From a virus: DNA of 45,593 nt. Numbering within the stretch: the stretch's first letter is position 1; each line of letters opens with the position of its first letter. The position numbers and the translations under genes were made by a program. The stretch is taken from IMG/VR virus record IMGVR_UViG_3300045988_022876; one strand, given 5' to 3'. This document shows positions 13,764-19,052 of the stretch, piece after piece. Below the pieces are notes generated by a model. The model did not search any database and was not told the origin of the DNA. It saw only the letters and a list, made by a program, of their open reading frames with translations.

Positions 13764-14996
13764 ATGCTAACACCTGAGTATTTGCAAGATGCTACGGACG
13801 GAGCGGAGAAAATCGCGTCACAGATGCACCGGAACATTATGGACAAGATTATAGCCAGAATGATGTCACGCATTGGAAGAGGAGAAGATTATCTTCTTAC
13901 TGCTACGGATAAGTGGCAAATCATGGTTTTGCAAGATGCCGGAGAGTTGTTAAAGGACATTCAGAAAGAGATTACAGACAAGACGAAAAAGCAGCTGCCG
14001 GAAATCAAAGCAGCTTTTCAAGATGCCGGTATCGAAGCTCTAAAGTGGGATCATGCGATATATGAAGCGGTCGGTCTAAACCCTCCGCCACTTGCACAGT
14101 CACCGGCGCTGATCCGGATTCTTGAAAGAGATTATGCAGCAACCGAGAAAATGTGGCGTAACTTTACAAGGACAACGGCAGAGGAATCGCAGCGCATTTT
14201 CATAAACGAAATGGACAACGCATATAGAAATGTGGTATCCGGTGCAGTATCGTATACAGAAGCGGTAAAAGAGGTACTTGATAAAGTTACAGAGAATGGC
14301 GTTAAGGTAACATATCCGACCCAAAGAAAGTTGAGCATAGAAGCAGCCACAATGATGATCGTCCGCACAGGAATTGGACAGGCGGCGGCAGACATTTCTA
14401 TCAAGAGAATGGAAGAAATGGAATGGGATACAATCCTTGTGTCTGCTCATTTGGGAGCCAGAACCGGAGATGGTGGAATGAATCCGACCAACCATTTGTG
14501 GTGGCAAGGTCGTTTTTATTCCAGAACCGGGAAAGACAAAAGATACCCGGACTTCCGGGAAACGACAGGATACGGAACGGGCGAGGGATTGTGTGGATGG
14601 AATTGCCGACACTCTTTCGGGACTGGTGACGGAATAAACAATCCGTTCGATATAGACAGCATAAAGAAAGCCGACAACTACAAAGCGGAATCCTTGCAGA
14701 AGAGACAACGGACACTGGAACGCCGGATCAGGAATAGTAAAGGAGATCTGCAAAATATACAGACAGCTATAGACAGTTGCCGAGATGAAAAACTCAAATT
14801 CGAGTTGCACCAGATGTATGACCGCAAGTCAGCGGTACTCAGACGGCAGAATAAGCAGTATCGTGATTACTGCAAAGAAAATGACCTCAAAGAATATTCG
14901 GAACGTCTACGGGTAGCACAGTGGGATAGGTCACAGGCTGTGAAATCAGCAAAAGCAGCACAGAGATATCTTAATGCGAAAGGTGATGAAAAATGA
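13764..14996 (+). CDS. Head morphogenesis / minor head protein (SPP1 gp7 / Mu F-like)
   Basis: Lies after the portal gene. CGWNCRHSF motif and coiled-coil C-terminus. Confidence 0.8.
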   Translation: MLTPEYLQDATDGAEKIASQMHRNIMDKIIARMMSRIGRGEDYLLTATDKWQIMVLQDAGELLKDIQKEITDKTKKQLPEIKAAFQDAGIEALKWDHAIYEAVGLNPPPLAQSPALIRILERDYAATEKMWRNFTRTTAEESQRIFINEMDNAYRNVVSGAVSYTEAVKEVLDKVTENGVKVTYPTQRKLSIEAATMMIVRTGIGQAAADISIKRMEEMEWDTILVSAHLGARTGDGGMNPTNHLWWQGRFYSRTGKDKRYPDFRETTGYGTGEGLCGWNCRHSFGTGDGINNPFDIDSIKKADNYKAESLQKRQRTLERRIRNSKGDLQNIQTAIDSCRDEKLKFELHQMYDRKSAVLRRQNKQYRDYCKENDLKEYSERLRVAQWDRSQAVKSAKAAQRYLNAKGDEK

Positions 14997-15265
14997 GTGG
15001 ATTGACAAGAATGGCAAAAATGTGCAGAGATTGTCCGTTTAAGGACAAGTGCAAGAATAAGCGATTGGAGAAAGAAGCGTATCTTGCACCTTTTACCTCA
15101 CCTATTATTGAAGATATGGCATCACCTGTATTAAAGGATCATGATTACAGAAATGTAAAGGTTGCAGAAAACACTACAATCACTATTGATGTAGAGGAAC
15201 TGAAAGAGAGAATACGAAAAGAGATATACAGGCAAGCCGGAATCGGATTGAATTATGGAGCGTAA
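14993..15265 (+). CDS. Hypothetical protein with CxxC
   Basis: ATGA overlap. MCRDCPFKDKC. Confidence 0.6.
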   Translation: MSGLTRMAKMCRDCPFKDKCKNKRLEKEAYLAPFTSPIIEDMASPVLKDHDYRNVKVAENTTITIDVEELKERIRKEIYRQAGIGLNYGA

Positions 15266-15268
15266 CAC

Positions 15269-15619
15269 ATGGAACTAATAACACAGATACTTGCTATATG
15301 CGGTGCTATATCGGTTGTCGGTGGTGCTGTTGCTGTGCTTTCCGGGTGGTATAAATCATGGAAAGCACCAAAAGAAAAGCAAGACAGCCGTATAGATCAG
15401 ATTGAAAAGCGAATAACGAACATTGAAACATCTATCACAGGGATTAATCAGAAACTTGATAACGATTACAATAACATAAGGAATACGAGGAATGATATGA
15501 ATCTATTGATGAGAAGTATGTTCAATCTGATCGAAAGTAAGATAACCGGGAACAACATTGAGGGTTTAAAAAAAACACGGGAAGAATTGGTAAATGCAAT
15601 GACAGACAAGAAAGCGTGA
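15269..15619 (+). CDS. Membrane-anchored coiled-coil protein
   Basis: N-terminal TM segment ILAICGAISVVGGAVAVLSGW followed by a heptad-rich region. Confidence 0.65.
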   Translation: MELITQILAICGAISVVGGAVAVLSGWYKSWKAPKEKQDSRIDQIEKRITNIETSITGINQKLDNDYNNIRNTRNDMNLLMRSMFNLIESKITGNNIEGLKKTREELVNAMTDKKA

Positions 15620-15831
15620 TTTATGGTATCATGAAAATATGTTCTTTTACACGTATAGAACTCGAATACCTAAGAAAAGAATGTAATTTTACGCCAACAG
15701 AAATGGAACTCTTTGATCTACGGAGCAAGGATGTACCTCTGGAATTGTGCGCGGAGAAGATGAACGTGAGCTTATCCACGGCAAAGAGAATAAGCAGACG
15801 AATAAATGCAAAGATAATAAAAGTGTGCTGA
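15616..15831 (+). CDS. Small HTH protein resembling sigma-70 region 4
   Basis: TEMELFDLRSKDVPLELCAEKMNVSLSTAKRISRRINAKI. GTG start is uncertain. Confidence 0.5.
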   Translation: MIYGIMKICSFTRIELEYLRKECNFTPTEMELFDLRSKDVPLELCAEKMNVSLSTAKRISRRINAKIIKVC

Positions 15832-15862
15832 TACTTTTGTGATTCTTTCTAAGGACTTTAAC

Positions 15863-15884
15863 GAACTGTTAGAGTTCTTTTTTT
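15863..15884 (+). terminator. Weak terminator
   Basis: gaact/agttc stem, gttag loop, T7 run. Confidence 0.4.
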
Positions 15885-15925
15885 ATGTGTAAAATTAAGG
15901 TATAGAAAACAAGGAGGTGTTTTTG

Positions 15926-17534: not shown

Positions 17535-17547
17535 TCTTGCAAATCAA

Positions 17548-17576
17548 AGGGGTAGGCAGTAGTCTATCCCTTTTTT
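17548..17576 (+). terminator. Rho-independent terminator
   Basis: aggggtag/ctatccct 8-bp stem (one G-U), 8-nt loop, T-run. Confidence 0.6.
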
Positions 17577-17591
17577 GAAAGGAGAATTTAT

Positions 17592-18020
17592 ATGTTAAAT
17601 GTAATTGCAAAAGCCGCACAGACAGTTGCGGTAAATCAGAATGTTGTATTTACGAACACAAGAGTAAGAAGCCGCCGTTGCGCTTGCACTAGTGGATGGC
17701 TCAATCACGATGACGGTAGCGGACTTTTTGAAGTAACCAACCGCGGAAATCTTCCAATGGCGGTAGAAGTAGAATTTAACGCCAATGTTTCAGCGGCAGC
17801 TGCCGGAGCGACAGCACTTACGATAGAGTTGAACGGTGAAGCAATCGGCGGAACCGAAATGGATTATACAGTTGTAACCGCAGAAGTATACCAAAACGTG
17901 AAAGCATCAACACTGATTGCGATACCGTCTGGAAGTAGCTTTACAATCTCTGTCGGAAACATCAGTGCGACTTCCGTTCTTGTGAAAGATGCAAATATCA
18001 TCATCAAAAAGCTTGCCTAG
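17592..18020 (+). CDS. Stand-alone BclA C-terminal / C1q-TNF-like jelly-roll protein
   Basis: AAAGGAG SD. EFNANVSAAAAGATALTIELNGEAIGG...ANIIIKKLA resembles the BclA CTD pattern (recalled, not searched). Confidence 0.45.
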   Translation: MLNVIAKAAQTVAVNQNVVFTNTRVRSRRCACTSGWLNHDDGSGLFEVTNRGNLPMAVEVEFNANVSAAAAGATALTIELNGEAIGGTEMDYTVVTAEVYQNVKASTLIAIPSGSSFTISVGNISATSVLVKDANIIIKKLA

Positions 18021-18034
18021 AAAGGGGTGAGCTT

Positions 18035-18628
18035 ATGATCGGATTTAAAAGCAAAATGGACGTAAGCACGCCAGAAGAGATTTTTTCGGAGATCAATAAC
18101 CGGTTTATCGGAGCGATTATGATGCATGGACAATTTGCGGATTACTTTGATTTCTTGGGATTAAGAGGATACAAACATCTGCATGAGTACCAACATCTAG
18201 CAGAAAGCATAGAACGGCGAAAGGTATGTAGATATTACATTAACCATCACAATGCGCTCATAAAAGAGGATTTTTCCGGTGAAGTGAATATCATACCGGA
18301 TGCATGGTACACGGCAAAAAGATTGTCTGTTGGCAAAAGCACCAAACAGAAAGCGGTAGAGGATGGATTTCTCGAATATCACAACTGGGAATCCGAGACA
18401 AAATCCGTGTATGAGAAGTACGCGCAAAAGCTCAGAGAAATAGGATCCGTAGCAGACGCTGTTTTTGTAGAAAAATTGGTGGAAGATGTAAGCGCAGAGT
18501 TAAAAACGGTAGAACAGATGATTTCTGATCTGATAACCACGGGATATGACATGGTTTACATCACTGAAAACCAGTCGGAAATACACGAAAAATACAAGAA
18601 AAAGTTAAAAGGAATCGAGGTGGAATGA
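18035..18628 (+). CDS. Ferritin-like four-helix protein
   Basis: MMHGQFADYFDFLGLRGYKHLHEYQHLAESIERRK resembles ferritin/bacterioferritin helices A-B. The canonical ExxH is not evident. Confidence 0.4.
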   Translation: MIGFKSKMDVSTPEEIFSEINNRFIGAIMMHGQFADYFDFLGLRGYKHLHEYQHLAESIERRKVCRYYINHHNALIKEDFSGEVNIIPDAWYTAKRLSVGKSTKQKAVEDGFLEYHNWESETKSVYEKYAQKLREIGSVADAVFVEKLVEDVSAELKTVEQMISDLITTGYDMVYITENQSEIHEKYKKKLKGIEVE

Positions 18629-18629
18629 G

Positions 18630-19052
18630 ATGGAAGAAGTAAAAAAGATTCTCAAAAACCAGTTGGACAGAGAGAAAGAATCGATAAAGCGTGAGCTGAC
18701 ACTCTCCAACCTGGATGCAATCTATAAGATCACGGGAACGCTCTGCAATATTCATGAACTTGAATGCGCAGAAATGCCGACAGTACTTTCAGAAGCTTCA
18801 GAAAATCTGATTAAGAAGTACAGCAATGGAAAATACGACAAGAATATTGATGAATTATACAACAGATACATTCTTGCAAAAGAAGCGTACAAGGAAAACG
18901 GAGATCAGGCACACAGGGACAAACTGATGGAATGCGTTGGAAGATTGATGGTAGAGGTTTATGATATGCTTTCCTCTATGGTCATGGATTCTGATTTTGC
19001 TGACGAGAGAAAAGAGATTCAAAAACAGATCAGAAAACTCGCAGATATGTAA
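18630..19052 (+). CDS. Hypothetical helical protein
   Basis: 140-aa ORF with GAGGTGG SD. Confidence 0.7.
   Translation: MEEVKKILKNQLDREKESIKRELTLSNLDAIYKITGTLCNIHELECAEMPTVLSEASENLIKKYSNGKYDKNIDELYNRYILAKEAYKENGDQAHRDKLMECVGRLMVEVYDMLSSMVMDSDFADERKEIQKQIRKLADM

Follow-up and report, generated by a model that had tools for sequence, protein, structure and literature searches.

The viral sequence IMGVR_UViG_3300045988_022876, 45,593 nucleotides long and referred to as a whole as the window, carries within its head gene module an island of ten plus-strand open reading frames (ORFs), O1 to O10, at positions 14993 to 19052. The genes span 4.06 kb, or 4.46 kb when the noncoding locus that reaches to the start of the next head gene is included. 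An original prediction made from the sequence had described an accessory island of 11 ORFs at this place; many ORFs do intervene, but the count is 10, which is also the sum of the units that the prediction itself listed. Its description of the flanks was accurate: the island is preceded by a Phage_min_cap2 gene for an SPP1 gp7-type minor head protein (13764 to 14996, plus strand; Pfam PF06152, E = 6.5e-73) and followed by a scaffolding protein gene (19458 to 20075, plus strand; PF06810 Phage_scaffold, E = 5.8e-26), both of which lie outside it. Pfam scans also place small and large terminase subunit genes upstream of the island and a weakly matching Gp13-like major capsid protein (MCP) downstream of the scaffold gene; the portal ORF (12241 to 13674) has no Pfam match and is homologous to the portal protein of Roseburia phage Jekyll.

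Jekyll offers a direct view of the site without the island. It encodes homologues of the window portal (E = 1e-114), minor head protein (1e-122), scaffold (6e-28), and MCP (6.5e-128) in the order portal, minor capsid, 88-amino-acid ORF, 392-nucleotide gap, scaffold, and MCP, and we found none of O1 to O10 in it. Jekyll is therefore an empty site with syntenic flanks, and the designation of the window genes as an accessory island is correct. The 88-amino-acid ORF was considered as a possible counterpart of O1, which would have made O1 a common backbone gene, and was ruled out because the two lack BLAST similarity. G+C content is 0.37 at 15001 to 16000 (O1 to O3), compared with 0.42 to 0.46 for the head genes on either side; elsewhere in the island it is 0.40 to 0.44, near the phage average. 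Elsewhere the window phage encodes a CI-type repressor, an anti-repressor, and a large serine integrase and is therefore temperate.

Comparison of homologous loci gives us high confidence that O3 to O10 constitute one conserved, horizontally mobile cassette. Searching one genome per prokaryotic species with an alignment of O6, the signature protein of the cassette, we recovered 69 further loci, for a total of 75; their genes were labelled with iterated hidden Markov models (HMMs) built from the window proteins, and unlabelled downstream genes were clustered. Gene order is collinear in all 75. Among the 60 loci with at least 1.8 kb of flank, O4 is present in 58, O5 in 47, and O3, upstream of O4, in 49. 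Among the 56 with enough flank, a beta-rich protein always follows O6 or O7 (O8 in 26, an alternative that we call altE in 30), and a helical protein comes next in 47 (O9 in 12, O10 in 20, and an alternative, altF, which corresponds to Pfam family DUF7841, in 21). The fixed order is thus a helix-turn-helix (HTH) protein (O3), O4, O5, O6, an optional O7 (12 of the 56 loci), either O8 or altE, and then O9, O10, or DUF7841. Two human fecal phage contigs, one at 43 to 76% amino acid identity to the window (L001) and one much more divergent (L002), share these genes and their location.

The closest genome match to the window is a Coprococcus comes contig (L006), whose O6 is 90% identical. Ratios of nonsynonymous to synonymous polymorphism (pN/pS) against this contig range from 0.02 to 0.31 across O2 to O10; these low values, along with a homologue family for each protein in other loci, indicate that O2 to O10 are real genes under purifying selection. 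Amino acid identity to the same contig is uneven (O4 and O10, 99%; O8 and O9, 96%; O3, 93%; O6, 90%; O5, 83%; O7, 78%; O2, 71%), a mosaic that suggests recombination within the cassette.

The cassette has so far appeared in phage-like contexts only, and O6 had no match in 72,556 plasmids. Its surroundings vary widely. Upstream neighbors include endolysins or amidases, minor head proteins, portals, and tail proteins, with endolysins the commonest identifiable class, and downstream neighbors include scaffold proteins, MCPs, endolysins, anti-repressors, and nucleases. In Clostridium perfringens phages, HMD-PC1 and PMQ04 among them, the cassette is found with the genes that separate the lysis module from the replication module; an integrase is not annotated in PMQ04. 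Only about 10 of the 75 loci have it inside a head module, and the position seen in the window is shared only by its closest relatives (L001, L002, and L006 to L009) and a few others (e.g., L005 and L029). Homologues that proved to be standard head-decoration or scaffold accessory proteins shared by most relatives would have undercut the original prediction, and this is not the case: their position changes from phage to phage, and no known decoration or scaffold accessory protein is among them. Carriers are labelled as siphoviruses, podoviruses, myoviruses, and crAss-like phages and have several unrelated MCP families; most of those with a stated source come from gut samples. In the window phage the cassette has landed at an operon boundary, between the packaging, portal, and minor head genes and the scaffold and capsid genes.

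Several of these traits are those of phage morons, which are accessory gene sets found at the borders of operons: absence from the syntenic Jekyll locus, hairpin and U-tract bounds, an adjoining hotspot for tRNA and noncoding RNA together with a variable gene slot, and changes of position. Morons typically comprise one or two genes and serve host fitness in lysogens, whereas this cassette is a collinear set of six to eight genes with its own regulator and is found also in crAss-like phages and PMQ04. Scans of the 10 island proteins with Pfam, NCBIfam, PHROGs, and PADLOC returned only weak matches or matches of unknown function. Aside from the HTH, no enzyme or defense system family matched the island proteins or their family members; PADLOC models had no match for O1 or O3 to O10, and O2 matched LmuB and PbeC in a coiled-coil manner only. 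Literature searches on DUF7841, phage BclA- or C1q-like proteins, and the virion proteomics of carriers turned up nothing relevant, including no paper describing the cassette or DUF7841. As a unit the cassette thus appears, from these comparisons, to match none of the known kinds of phage module that we tested and to be represented only by PHROGs, by DUF7841, and by the domain relatives BclA_C, ferritin, and sigma region 4.

O6 (16660 to 17328, plus strand; phrog_16490, E = 7.5e-13) begins with a highly conserved N-terminal motif, followed by a hydrophobic segment at residues 28 to 42 flanked by W and G, two long helices, and a proline-rich and then cysteine-rich tail. A near-invariant CCC(E/N)T motif (C104 to C106) separates the two helices. 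An AlphaFold2 (AF2) model places helices at residues 30 to 40, 57 to 97, and 108 to 191 with a predicted local distance difference test (pLDDT) score of 49.5, a low value of the kind expected if an oligomeric coiled coil is modelled as a monomer. The family is very large, with at least 8,000 clusters at 90% identity, some of which hold more than 1,000 member sequences. Exact copies of the window O6 protein are recorded in 33 blocks of the assembly collection, and four of the listed places are Logan assemblies of sequencing runs. With its N-terminal hydrophobic segment, cysteine-containing break between two long helices, and proline-rich C-terminal region, O6 is laid out in what we take to be the manner of Rz-type i-spanins and class I fusion proteins. 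It differs from Rz-type spanins in several respects: Pfam and PHROG scans linked it to no spanin family by sequence or profile, many of the hosts are monoderm, an o-spanin partner is absent, and the lysis genes lie elsewhere. The optional O7 (17328 to 17534, plus strand; pN/pS, 0.14) is a small helical protein of 68 amino acids.

O5 (16353 to 16607, plus strand; pN/pS, 0.17) is an 84-amino-acid protein with 18% methionine and repeated NP-x-x-hydrophobic-x-Q motifs. In the Bacteroides phage C3_41T2LP, O6 itself carries an O5-like, methionine-rich "GIDPN" segment at its N terminus, ahead of the hydrophobic stretch, and this fusion links O5 to O6 as a partner; the O6 homologue of the crAss-like phage cr125_1 has a similar methionine-rich N terminus. 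We considered a helical hand of the STI1/ubiquilin type for O5, and a RAD23 domain scored just E = 6 in the profile search of the PDB. O4 (to 16360, plus strand; phrog_21718, E = 5.7e-21) is a glutamine-rich coiled-coil protein whose listed GTG start at 15917 overlaps an AGGAGG at 15913 to 15918. An in-frame ATG at 15926 gives a protein of 144 amino acids with the N terminus MNGYGPYY found in homologues; because of the overlap, and because relatives are called at 141 to 144 amino acids, the ATG is probably the true start. The O4 family comprises at least 1,554 clusters and has neither a Pfam domain nor names. Built from a 68-sequence alignment, its AF2 model has a disordered Y/P/Q-rich N terminus (the terminus is Q/N/M/P-rich overall), a helix at residues 18 to 40, a beta-alpha-beta3 domain at residues 51 to 100 with pLDDT above 90, and a helix at residues 124 to 140. 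Foldseek found nothing significant for this model in the PDB (best E = 0.1, an SH2-like topology) and only orphan gut virome proteins in BFVD, and a profile search of the PDB gave nothing at E < 0.01. The description of O4, O5, and O6 as low-complexity proteins agrees with their Q/M/N/G-rich composition.

O3 (15616 to 15831, plus strand; phrog_1190, E = 1.3e-5) is a 71-amino-acid HTH protein of sigma-70 region 4 or GerE type. Alone, the window protein reaches 13.6 bits (E = 0.05) against a Sigma70_r4-type HTH profile with a cut-off of 24.1 bits; at the family level the assignment is borne out, with Sigma70_r4 matched by 7 of 28 members (best E = 1.7e-9), further matches to Sigma70_r4_2, and 6 members each matching GerE and DUF1492. 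The matches span region 4 only, and O3 lacks sigma region 2; it is therefore a small HTH regulator rather than a sigma factor. O3 comes first in the cassette, which it presumably regulates. In its small size, its HTH matches, and its place at the head of a gene block, O3 is similar to DUF1492, to the RinA/ArpU-type late activators known from Firmicutes phages, and to GerE/LuxR HTH proteins. Phage late activators usually lie before the terminase genes, whereas O3 precedes this cassette.

O8 (17592 to 18020, plus strand) is a stand-alone BclA_C/C1q-like protein of 142 amino acids. Its own match to BclA_C (E = 2e-4, 21.7 bits) is below the 38-bit cut-off, and profile searches with the family support the resemblance that the original prediction had noticed: PF18573 is matched by 15 of 31 members (best E = 8.3e-9), and in the PDB the O8 profile finds 9H38 at E = 4.9e-5 and BclA C-terminal domains at E = 0.02 to 0.06. 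Entry 9H38 shows the F-BclA C-terminal domain; F-BclA is the tip fibrillum of the Bacillus thuringiensis F-ENA (Sleutel et al. 2025, PMC12357932). O8 would accordingly be expected from profile similarity to adopt a trimeric jelly-roll fold. Its closest known counterparts are the C-terminal domains of BclA and F-BclA (PF18573; PDB 1WCK and 9H38), which form the C1q/TNF-like trimeric heads of the exosporium nap and F-ENA tip fibrils; O8 lacks a signal peptide, as do exosporium proteins. O8 differs from these domains as a phage-encoded, stand-alone domain whose 142 residues include neither collagen-like GXX repeats nor an N-terminal exosporium-targeting region and whose cassette also occurs in phages of nonsporulating hosts. 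The O8 family has 223 representatives at E ≤ 0.001; among the 150 listed, nearly all are 70 to 200 amino acids long, none exceeds 228, and none is collagen-like. The protein that replaces O8 in the other loci, altE, is a cysteine-rich beta protein that we treat as unrelated, because hhalign gave a probability of 13% for the pair; its profile matched nothing in the PDB at E < 0.01.

O9 (18035 to 18628, plus strand; 197 amino acids) is ferritin-like, as had been proposed, with a profile match across the four-helix bundle. Its profile matches PDB ferritins at E = 3.6e-5 to 2e-3, with profile positions 12 to 182 aligned to ferritin positions 7 to 159 and the Thermotoga maritima and Pyrococcus ferritins covered over almost their full length; no Pfam ferritin family was matched at threshold. 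Residues H31, H50, E119, and E155 are invariant in the family. On the ligand numbering of ferritins, as we take it to map onto O9, the helix-B Glu (E or D), the helix-C Glu (E119), and the helix-D Glu (E155) persist, F or R stands at the place of the helix-A Glu, and the His of the ExxH position is variable. The di-iron ligand set is thus incomplete, and by alignment the ferroxidase center appears to be retained in part only. O9 resembles prokaryotic ferritins (Archaeoglobus fulgidus 1S3Q and T. maritima 1VLG) in its near-complete four-helix-bundle alignment and differs from them in its partial ligands, in its own invariant H31 and H50, and in being an optional part of a cassette. Ferritin-like cargo proteins are encoded beside HK97-fold encapsulin shells, and the place of O9 in the window, just upstream of HK97-type scaffold and capsid genes, may be analogous.

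O10 (18630 to 19052, plus strand; phrog_28802, E = 3.8e-6; pN/pS, 0.02) is a 140-amino-acid helical protein. In its relatives the helical ends flank a disordered insert rich in R, Y, G, and D and up to about 150 amino acids long, which is nearly absent from the window copy. The identification of altF with DUF7841 comes from matches in 24 of 25 altF members, among 61 proteins scanned (best E = 2.8e-43). DUF7841 relatives carry inserts rich in the same residues as do those of O10, and the DUF7841 profile found nothing in the PDB at E < 0.01.

The first two genes of the island have a different history. O1 (14993 to 15265, plus strand) encodes a 90-amino-acid protein with cysteines at positions 11, 14, and 20, the first two of which make it the CxxC protein that was predicted; the support for it is a single PHROG match (phrog_28328, E = 1.4e-11). 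O1 is missing from L006, from L001, and from four near-identical metagenome copies of the window phage (L081 to L084). O2 (15269 to 15619, plus strand; 116 amino acids; pN/pS, 0.31) has an N-terminal transmembrane helix, with a Kyte-Doolittle mean of 2.39 over residues 7 to 21, and a coiled coil. That character, also predicted, agrees with weak matches to coiled-coil-type families (Pfam XhlA, E = 0.0027; phrog_1296 holin, 5.1e-5; Rz-like spanin, 1.6e-3). It occurs in 6 of the 75 loci, all from the lineage of the window phage. The four near-identical copies have the same O6 protein as the window and different small ORFs between the minor head gene and O4; in three of them, other small ORFs stand between O3 and O4 (103 amino acids, 106 amino acids, and an 89-amino-acid DUF6275 protein). 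A hypervariable slot thus adjoins the cassette (window, 14993 to 15916; L081, 4565 to 5276; L082 and L083, 4799 to 5267; also in L084), and it holds O1 in the window and, elsewhere, either the 103-amino-acid ORF with the DUF6275 protein or the 106-amino-acid ORF. Because O1 is missing from near relatives and O2 is restricted to those six loci, both are best described from this distribution as lineage-specific occupants of the variable slot, outside the conserved cassette. The island is therefore composite, with O1 and O2 lineage specific and O3 to O10 forming one conserved mobile cassette.

Carriers of O6 extend well beyond phages of Firmicutes. Many crAss-like phages have homologues that carry the annotation "spike protein/glycoprotein" or "outer capsid protein/viral fiber," and a further homologue is found in the plaque-isolated Bacteroides uniformis phage C3_41T2LP; the O6 HMM confirms both (E = 1.8e-31 for the crAss-like homologue and 1.7e-40 for that of C3_41T2LP). 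Alongside O6, both cr125_1 and C3_41T2LP encode a beta protein of the altE type, a DUF7841 protein, and a protein that combines beta structure with a coiled coil. The cr125_1 cassette (L076, 1216 to 7448) runs in the order DUF7841 (gp032), the O6-like gp031, the altE-like gp030, and the beta-plus-coiled-coil gp029 and directly follows genes annotated as endolysin, holin, and LysB/FtsL-like. Two names given to its proteins, "RNA polymerase sigma factor/ubiquitin-like protein" and "spike protein/glycoprotein," are probably artifacts of weak remote matches. The cassette of the B. uniformis phage is situated in a recombination/replication region. Two viruses assigned to Methanomassiliicoccales encode O6 family proteins (phrog_16490) alone, at 4641 to 5522 in vir215 (L078) and 4632 to 5555 in vir335 (L079), and the remaining cassette genes were not detected in either. 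Both have a tail protein nearby, and in vir215 O6 also adjoins a diversity-generating retroelement (DGR) reverse transcriptase.

Our tentative interpretation, which we put at somewhat under even odds, is that the cassette is a self-contained module of the lytic cycle that builds a multiprotein assembly, probably membrane tethered and either cross-linked or condensate-like. O3, with sigma region 4 only, would switch the cassette on. The methionine-rich O5 would hold or escort the hydrophobic N terminus of O6, and O6 would oligomerize through its two long helices into a backbone, with the hydrophobic segment anchoring the complex in a membrane and the cysteine triplets and cysteine-rich tail forming cross-links or binding metal. 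O4 and O10, with their coiled coils and low-complexity segments, could bridge subunits, and a trimeric C1q-type O8 and the ferritin-like O9 could dock at the periphery, so that the product would be a self-assembling structure and not an enzyme pathway. The structural character is suggested by the features of O4, O6, O8, O9, and O10/DUF7841 together with the lack of any enzyme family match, and restriction to phages and use in the lytic cycle are suggested by the lack of plasmid matches and by the presence of the cassette in crAss-like phages and PMQ04.

Several points weigh against this scheme. We found no characterized homologue that bears on function. The O6 model has a pLDDT of 49.5, and oligomerization and membrane insertion are read from its sequence only. 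The chaperone role of O5 draws on one clear fusion and on composition, and the sole PDB match of its profile at E < 0.01 is a chain named "Gogy," presumably a de novo design, which we took as uninformative. O3 might instead activate late genes in general and only accompany the cassette. The 75 loci were gathered with a single O6 motif in one genome per species, so their frequencies may favor canonical cassettes, and the host labels of contigs from metagenome-assembled genomes (MAGs) are unreliable; the cultured or curated cases (C. perfringens, B. uniformis, and crAss-like phages) are independent of such labels.

The original prediction had offered two functional readings, one of which was a host-manipulating cassette that acts on sporulation or the envelope; we weighed it as a cassette for sporulation, exosporium, or spore coat conversion that is expressed from the prophage. 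The homology of O8 to BclA C-terminal domains of exosporium and F-ENA, the resemblance of O3 to GerE-type regulators, the Q-rich, Tyr/Arg-rich, and Cys-rich compositions that recall coat proteins, and the many carriers with Clostridia as hosts are all in its favor. The host range described above speaks strongly the other way, since the core (O6 with an O5-like N terminus, altE, and DUF7841) occurs in crAss-like and B. uniformis phages and O6 occurs in archaeal viruses, all with nonsporulating hosts, and the spore coat or lysogenic conversion reading is therefore disfavored. Lysogeny is not known in crAss-like phages, and PMQ04 carries the cassette with no annotated integrase. Pfam and NCBIfam scans of O1 to O10 and of family members matched no coat or exosporium morphogenetic family beyond the BclA C-terminal domain (Enas, E = 0.076), and O8 has neither the collagen-like region nor the N-terminal targeting domain of BclA, which leaves sporulation the most improbable of the explanations that we weighed. 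The other reading, that the products are virion-associated accessory proteins, deserves more weight and is still unlikely. They might form a fiber or decoration, with O6 as stalk and O8 as trimeric C1q head, or be cargo or ejection proteins that insert in the host membrane. Placement inside the head module just before the scaffold and MCP genes, in the window lineage and about 10 other loci, would suit such a role, as would the tail protein near O6 in the Methanomassiliicoccales viruses and the DGR reverse transcriptase beside it in vir215. Long helices with a hydrophobic segment, which O6 has, are typical of ejection proteins; others have annotated crAss-like O6 homologues as "spike protein" or "viral fiber," and a function independent of the host would fit the spread over host phyla. 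Fibers on exosporia and on F-ENA are, moreover, capped by BclA-type C1q domains (PMC12357932). But the position is tied to no morphogenesis module: it falls within early-type regions for C. perfringens phages and within a region of recombination/replication for the B. uniformis phage. In addition, a capsid binder needs a common docking site, while the carriers differ in morphotype and have unrelated MCP families. A dedicated HTH regulator would be unusual for structural genes, structural PHROG and Pfam families were unmatched, and the "spike" and "fiber" labels are probably generic coiled-coil matches.

It is rather improbable that the cassette is an envelope device, i.e., a lysis or egress module or a superinfection exclusion system in which O6 is a membrane protein of spanin-like layout. 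This idea draws on the hydrophobic segment, two helices, cysteines, and proline-rich end of O6, on the endolysins that are the commonest identifiable upstream neighbors of the cassette (and on the endolysin, holin, and LysB-like genes directly before the cr125_1 cassette), and on O2, which accompanies the cassette in the window lineage with weak holin, XhlA, and spanin-like matches. A role for the island as the lysis module of the window phage is ruled out by a canonical holin (33022 to 33315) and endolysin (33370 to 34413) encoded 14 kb away. A spanin is unnecessary in monoderm hosts, the carriers face monoderm, diderm, and archaeal envelopes, which makes a poor fit, and BclA_C-like, ferritin-like, and DUF7841 partners are foreign to known lysis systems; a site after the lysis genes is, in addition, a classic landing site for morons. 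Handling of metal or redox stress in anaerobic hosts, by buffering iron, copper, or oxidants during infection or after release, we regard as very unlikely. It would account for the ferritin-like O9 with invariant His and Glu residues, for the methionine content of O5, for the near-invariant cysteine triplets and cysteine-rich tail of O6, and for the predominance of gut samples among carriers with a stated source. O9, however, is found in only 12 of the 56 cassettes and is replaced by nonferritin proteins, its ferroxidase ligands are incomplete, no metal-binding family was matched significantly (CopI, E = 0.034, against a cut-off of 280 bits), and compositions rich in Met, Gln, and Asn are equally typical of low-complexity assembly domains. 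Finally, there is very little chance that the island is a pile of unrelated small morons or hypothetical ORFs without a common function. O1, O2, and the extra ORFs (103 amino acids, 106 amino acids, and DUF6275) do behave as independent swappable genes, and sequence identity along the cassette is mosaic, but the collinearity and co-occurrence of O3 to O6 with two downstream positions in 75 loci from very different phages exclude chance. The absence of a functional unit is thus contradicted for O3 to O10 and remains applicable to O1 and O2.

Should the cassette prove to be a single functional system, it would be among the most widespread uncharacterized multigene modules of gut phages: the core spans phage morphotypes and two bacterial host phyla, and O6 alone reaches archaeal viruses. 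A more specific and doubtful reading is a portable, self-regulated matrix module, whose coiled-coil, low-complexity, cysteine-rich, C1q-type, and ferritin-like proteins would form a membrane-tethered condensate or a cross-linked protein coat in infected anaerobes or around released virions. Such a matrix would represent a new class of phage-encoded supramolecular structure, common to phages of Firmicutes and Bacteroidota, with O6 also in methanogen viruses. Some carriers can be cultured, namely C. perfringens phages, the B. uniformis phage, and a prophage of Coprococcus comes, and the function is therefore directly testable. For annotation, BclA_C-like and ferritin-like genes in islands of this kind should not be read as sporulation genes.

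The original prediction had also divided the island into three units separated by terminators at 15863 to 15884 and 17548 to 17576. Hairpin and U-tract elements are present at both places. After O3, a terminator scan finds an AU-rich hairpin with a U7 tract at 15851 to 15879 (plus strand; folding free energy [dG], -12.2; z, -1.6), a weak terminator or attenuator, and between O7 and O8 a GC hairpin with a U6 tract occupies 17548 to 17576 (plus strand; dG, -20.4; z, -4.5; none of 200 shuffled sequences folds as well). Between the second U-tract and the O8 start codon are 15 nucleotides with a ribosome-binding site, which leaves no room for a promoter, and we therefore read this element as an attenuator or partial terminator within one transcription unit. 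The three-part anatomy stands, and the third part (O8 to O10) is more likely reached by attenuated read-through than an independent unit.

The noncoding locus predicted between the ORFs and the scaffold gene is present at 19053 to 19457. Folding analysis places a stable hairpin at 19205 to 19225 (plus strand), and a tRNA-like element follows at 19301 to 19369 (plus strand; Rfam tRNA, 57 bits), which ARAGORN reports as "tRNA-???" and whose anticodon loop has only four nucleotides (ACAU); on this evidence it is probably a degenerate tRNA. The same four-nucleotide ACAU loop occurs in the tRNA-like element of L006 (10637 to 10707), and at this position other relatives carry intact tRNAs that vary in identity (Ile-TAT, Thr-TGT, Met-CAT, and Tyr-GTA; the slot lies at 6012 to 6084 in L001, 2558 to 2632 in L007, 10659 to 10733 in L008, 10776 to 10849 in L009, and 10574 to 10665 in L002). 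The pattern suggests that tRNAs turn over at this slot and that one copy has decayed. The 5′ leader of the scaffold gene contains a GP20-b RNA motif (19374 to 19437, plus strand; RF03003, 40.2 bits against a gathering threshold of 36.2). GP20-b is found also in L006, RAGATH-21 in four relatives, and a skipping-rope RNA in one, with structured RNAs in the scaffold leaders at 5745 to 5831 in L001, 10372 to 10456 in L002, 2489 to 2557 in L007, and 10510 to 10599 and 10744 to 10827 in L008; the 392-nucleotide gap before the Jekyll scaffold gene has no Rfam match. The variety of tRNAs and RNAs ahead of the scaffold gene points to a permissive hotspot, in keeping with the arrival of the cassette at this junction.

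Outside the island, upstream of the small terminase gene, two adjacent ORFs at 8939 to 9430 and 9446 to 9823 both start with MGGRGG(T/S)S, encode basic and helical proteins, and resemble tandem paralogues.

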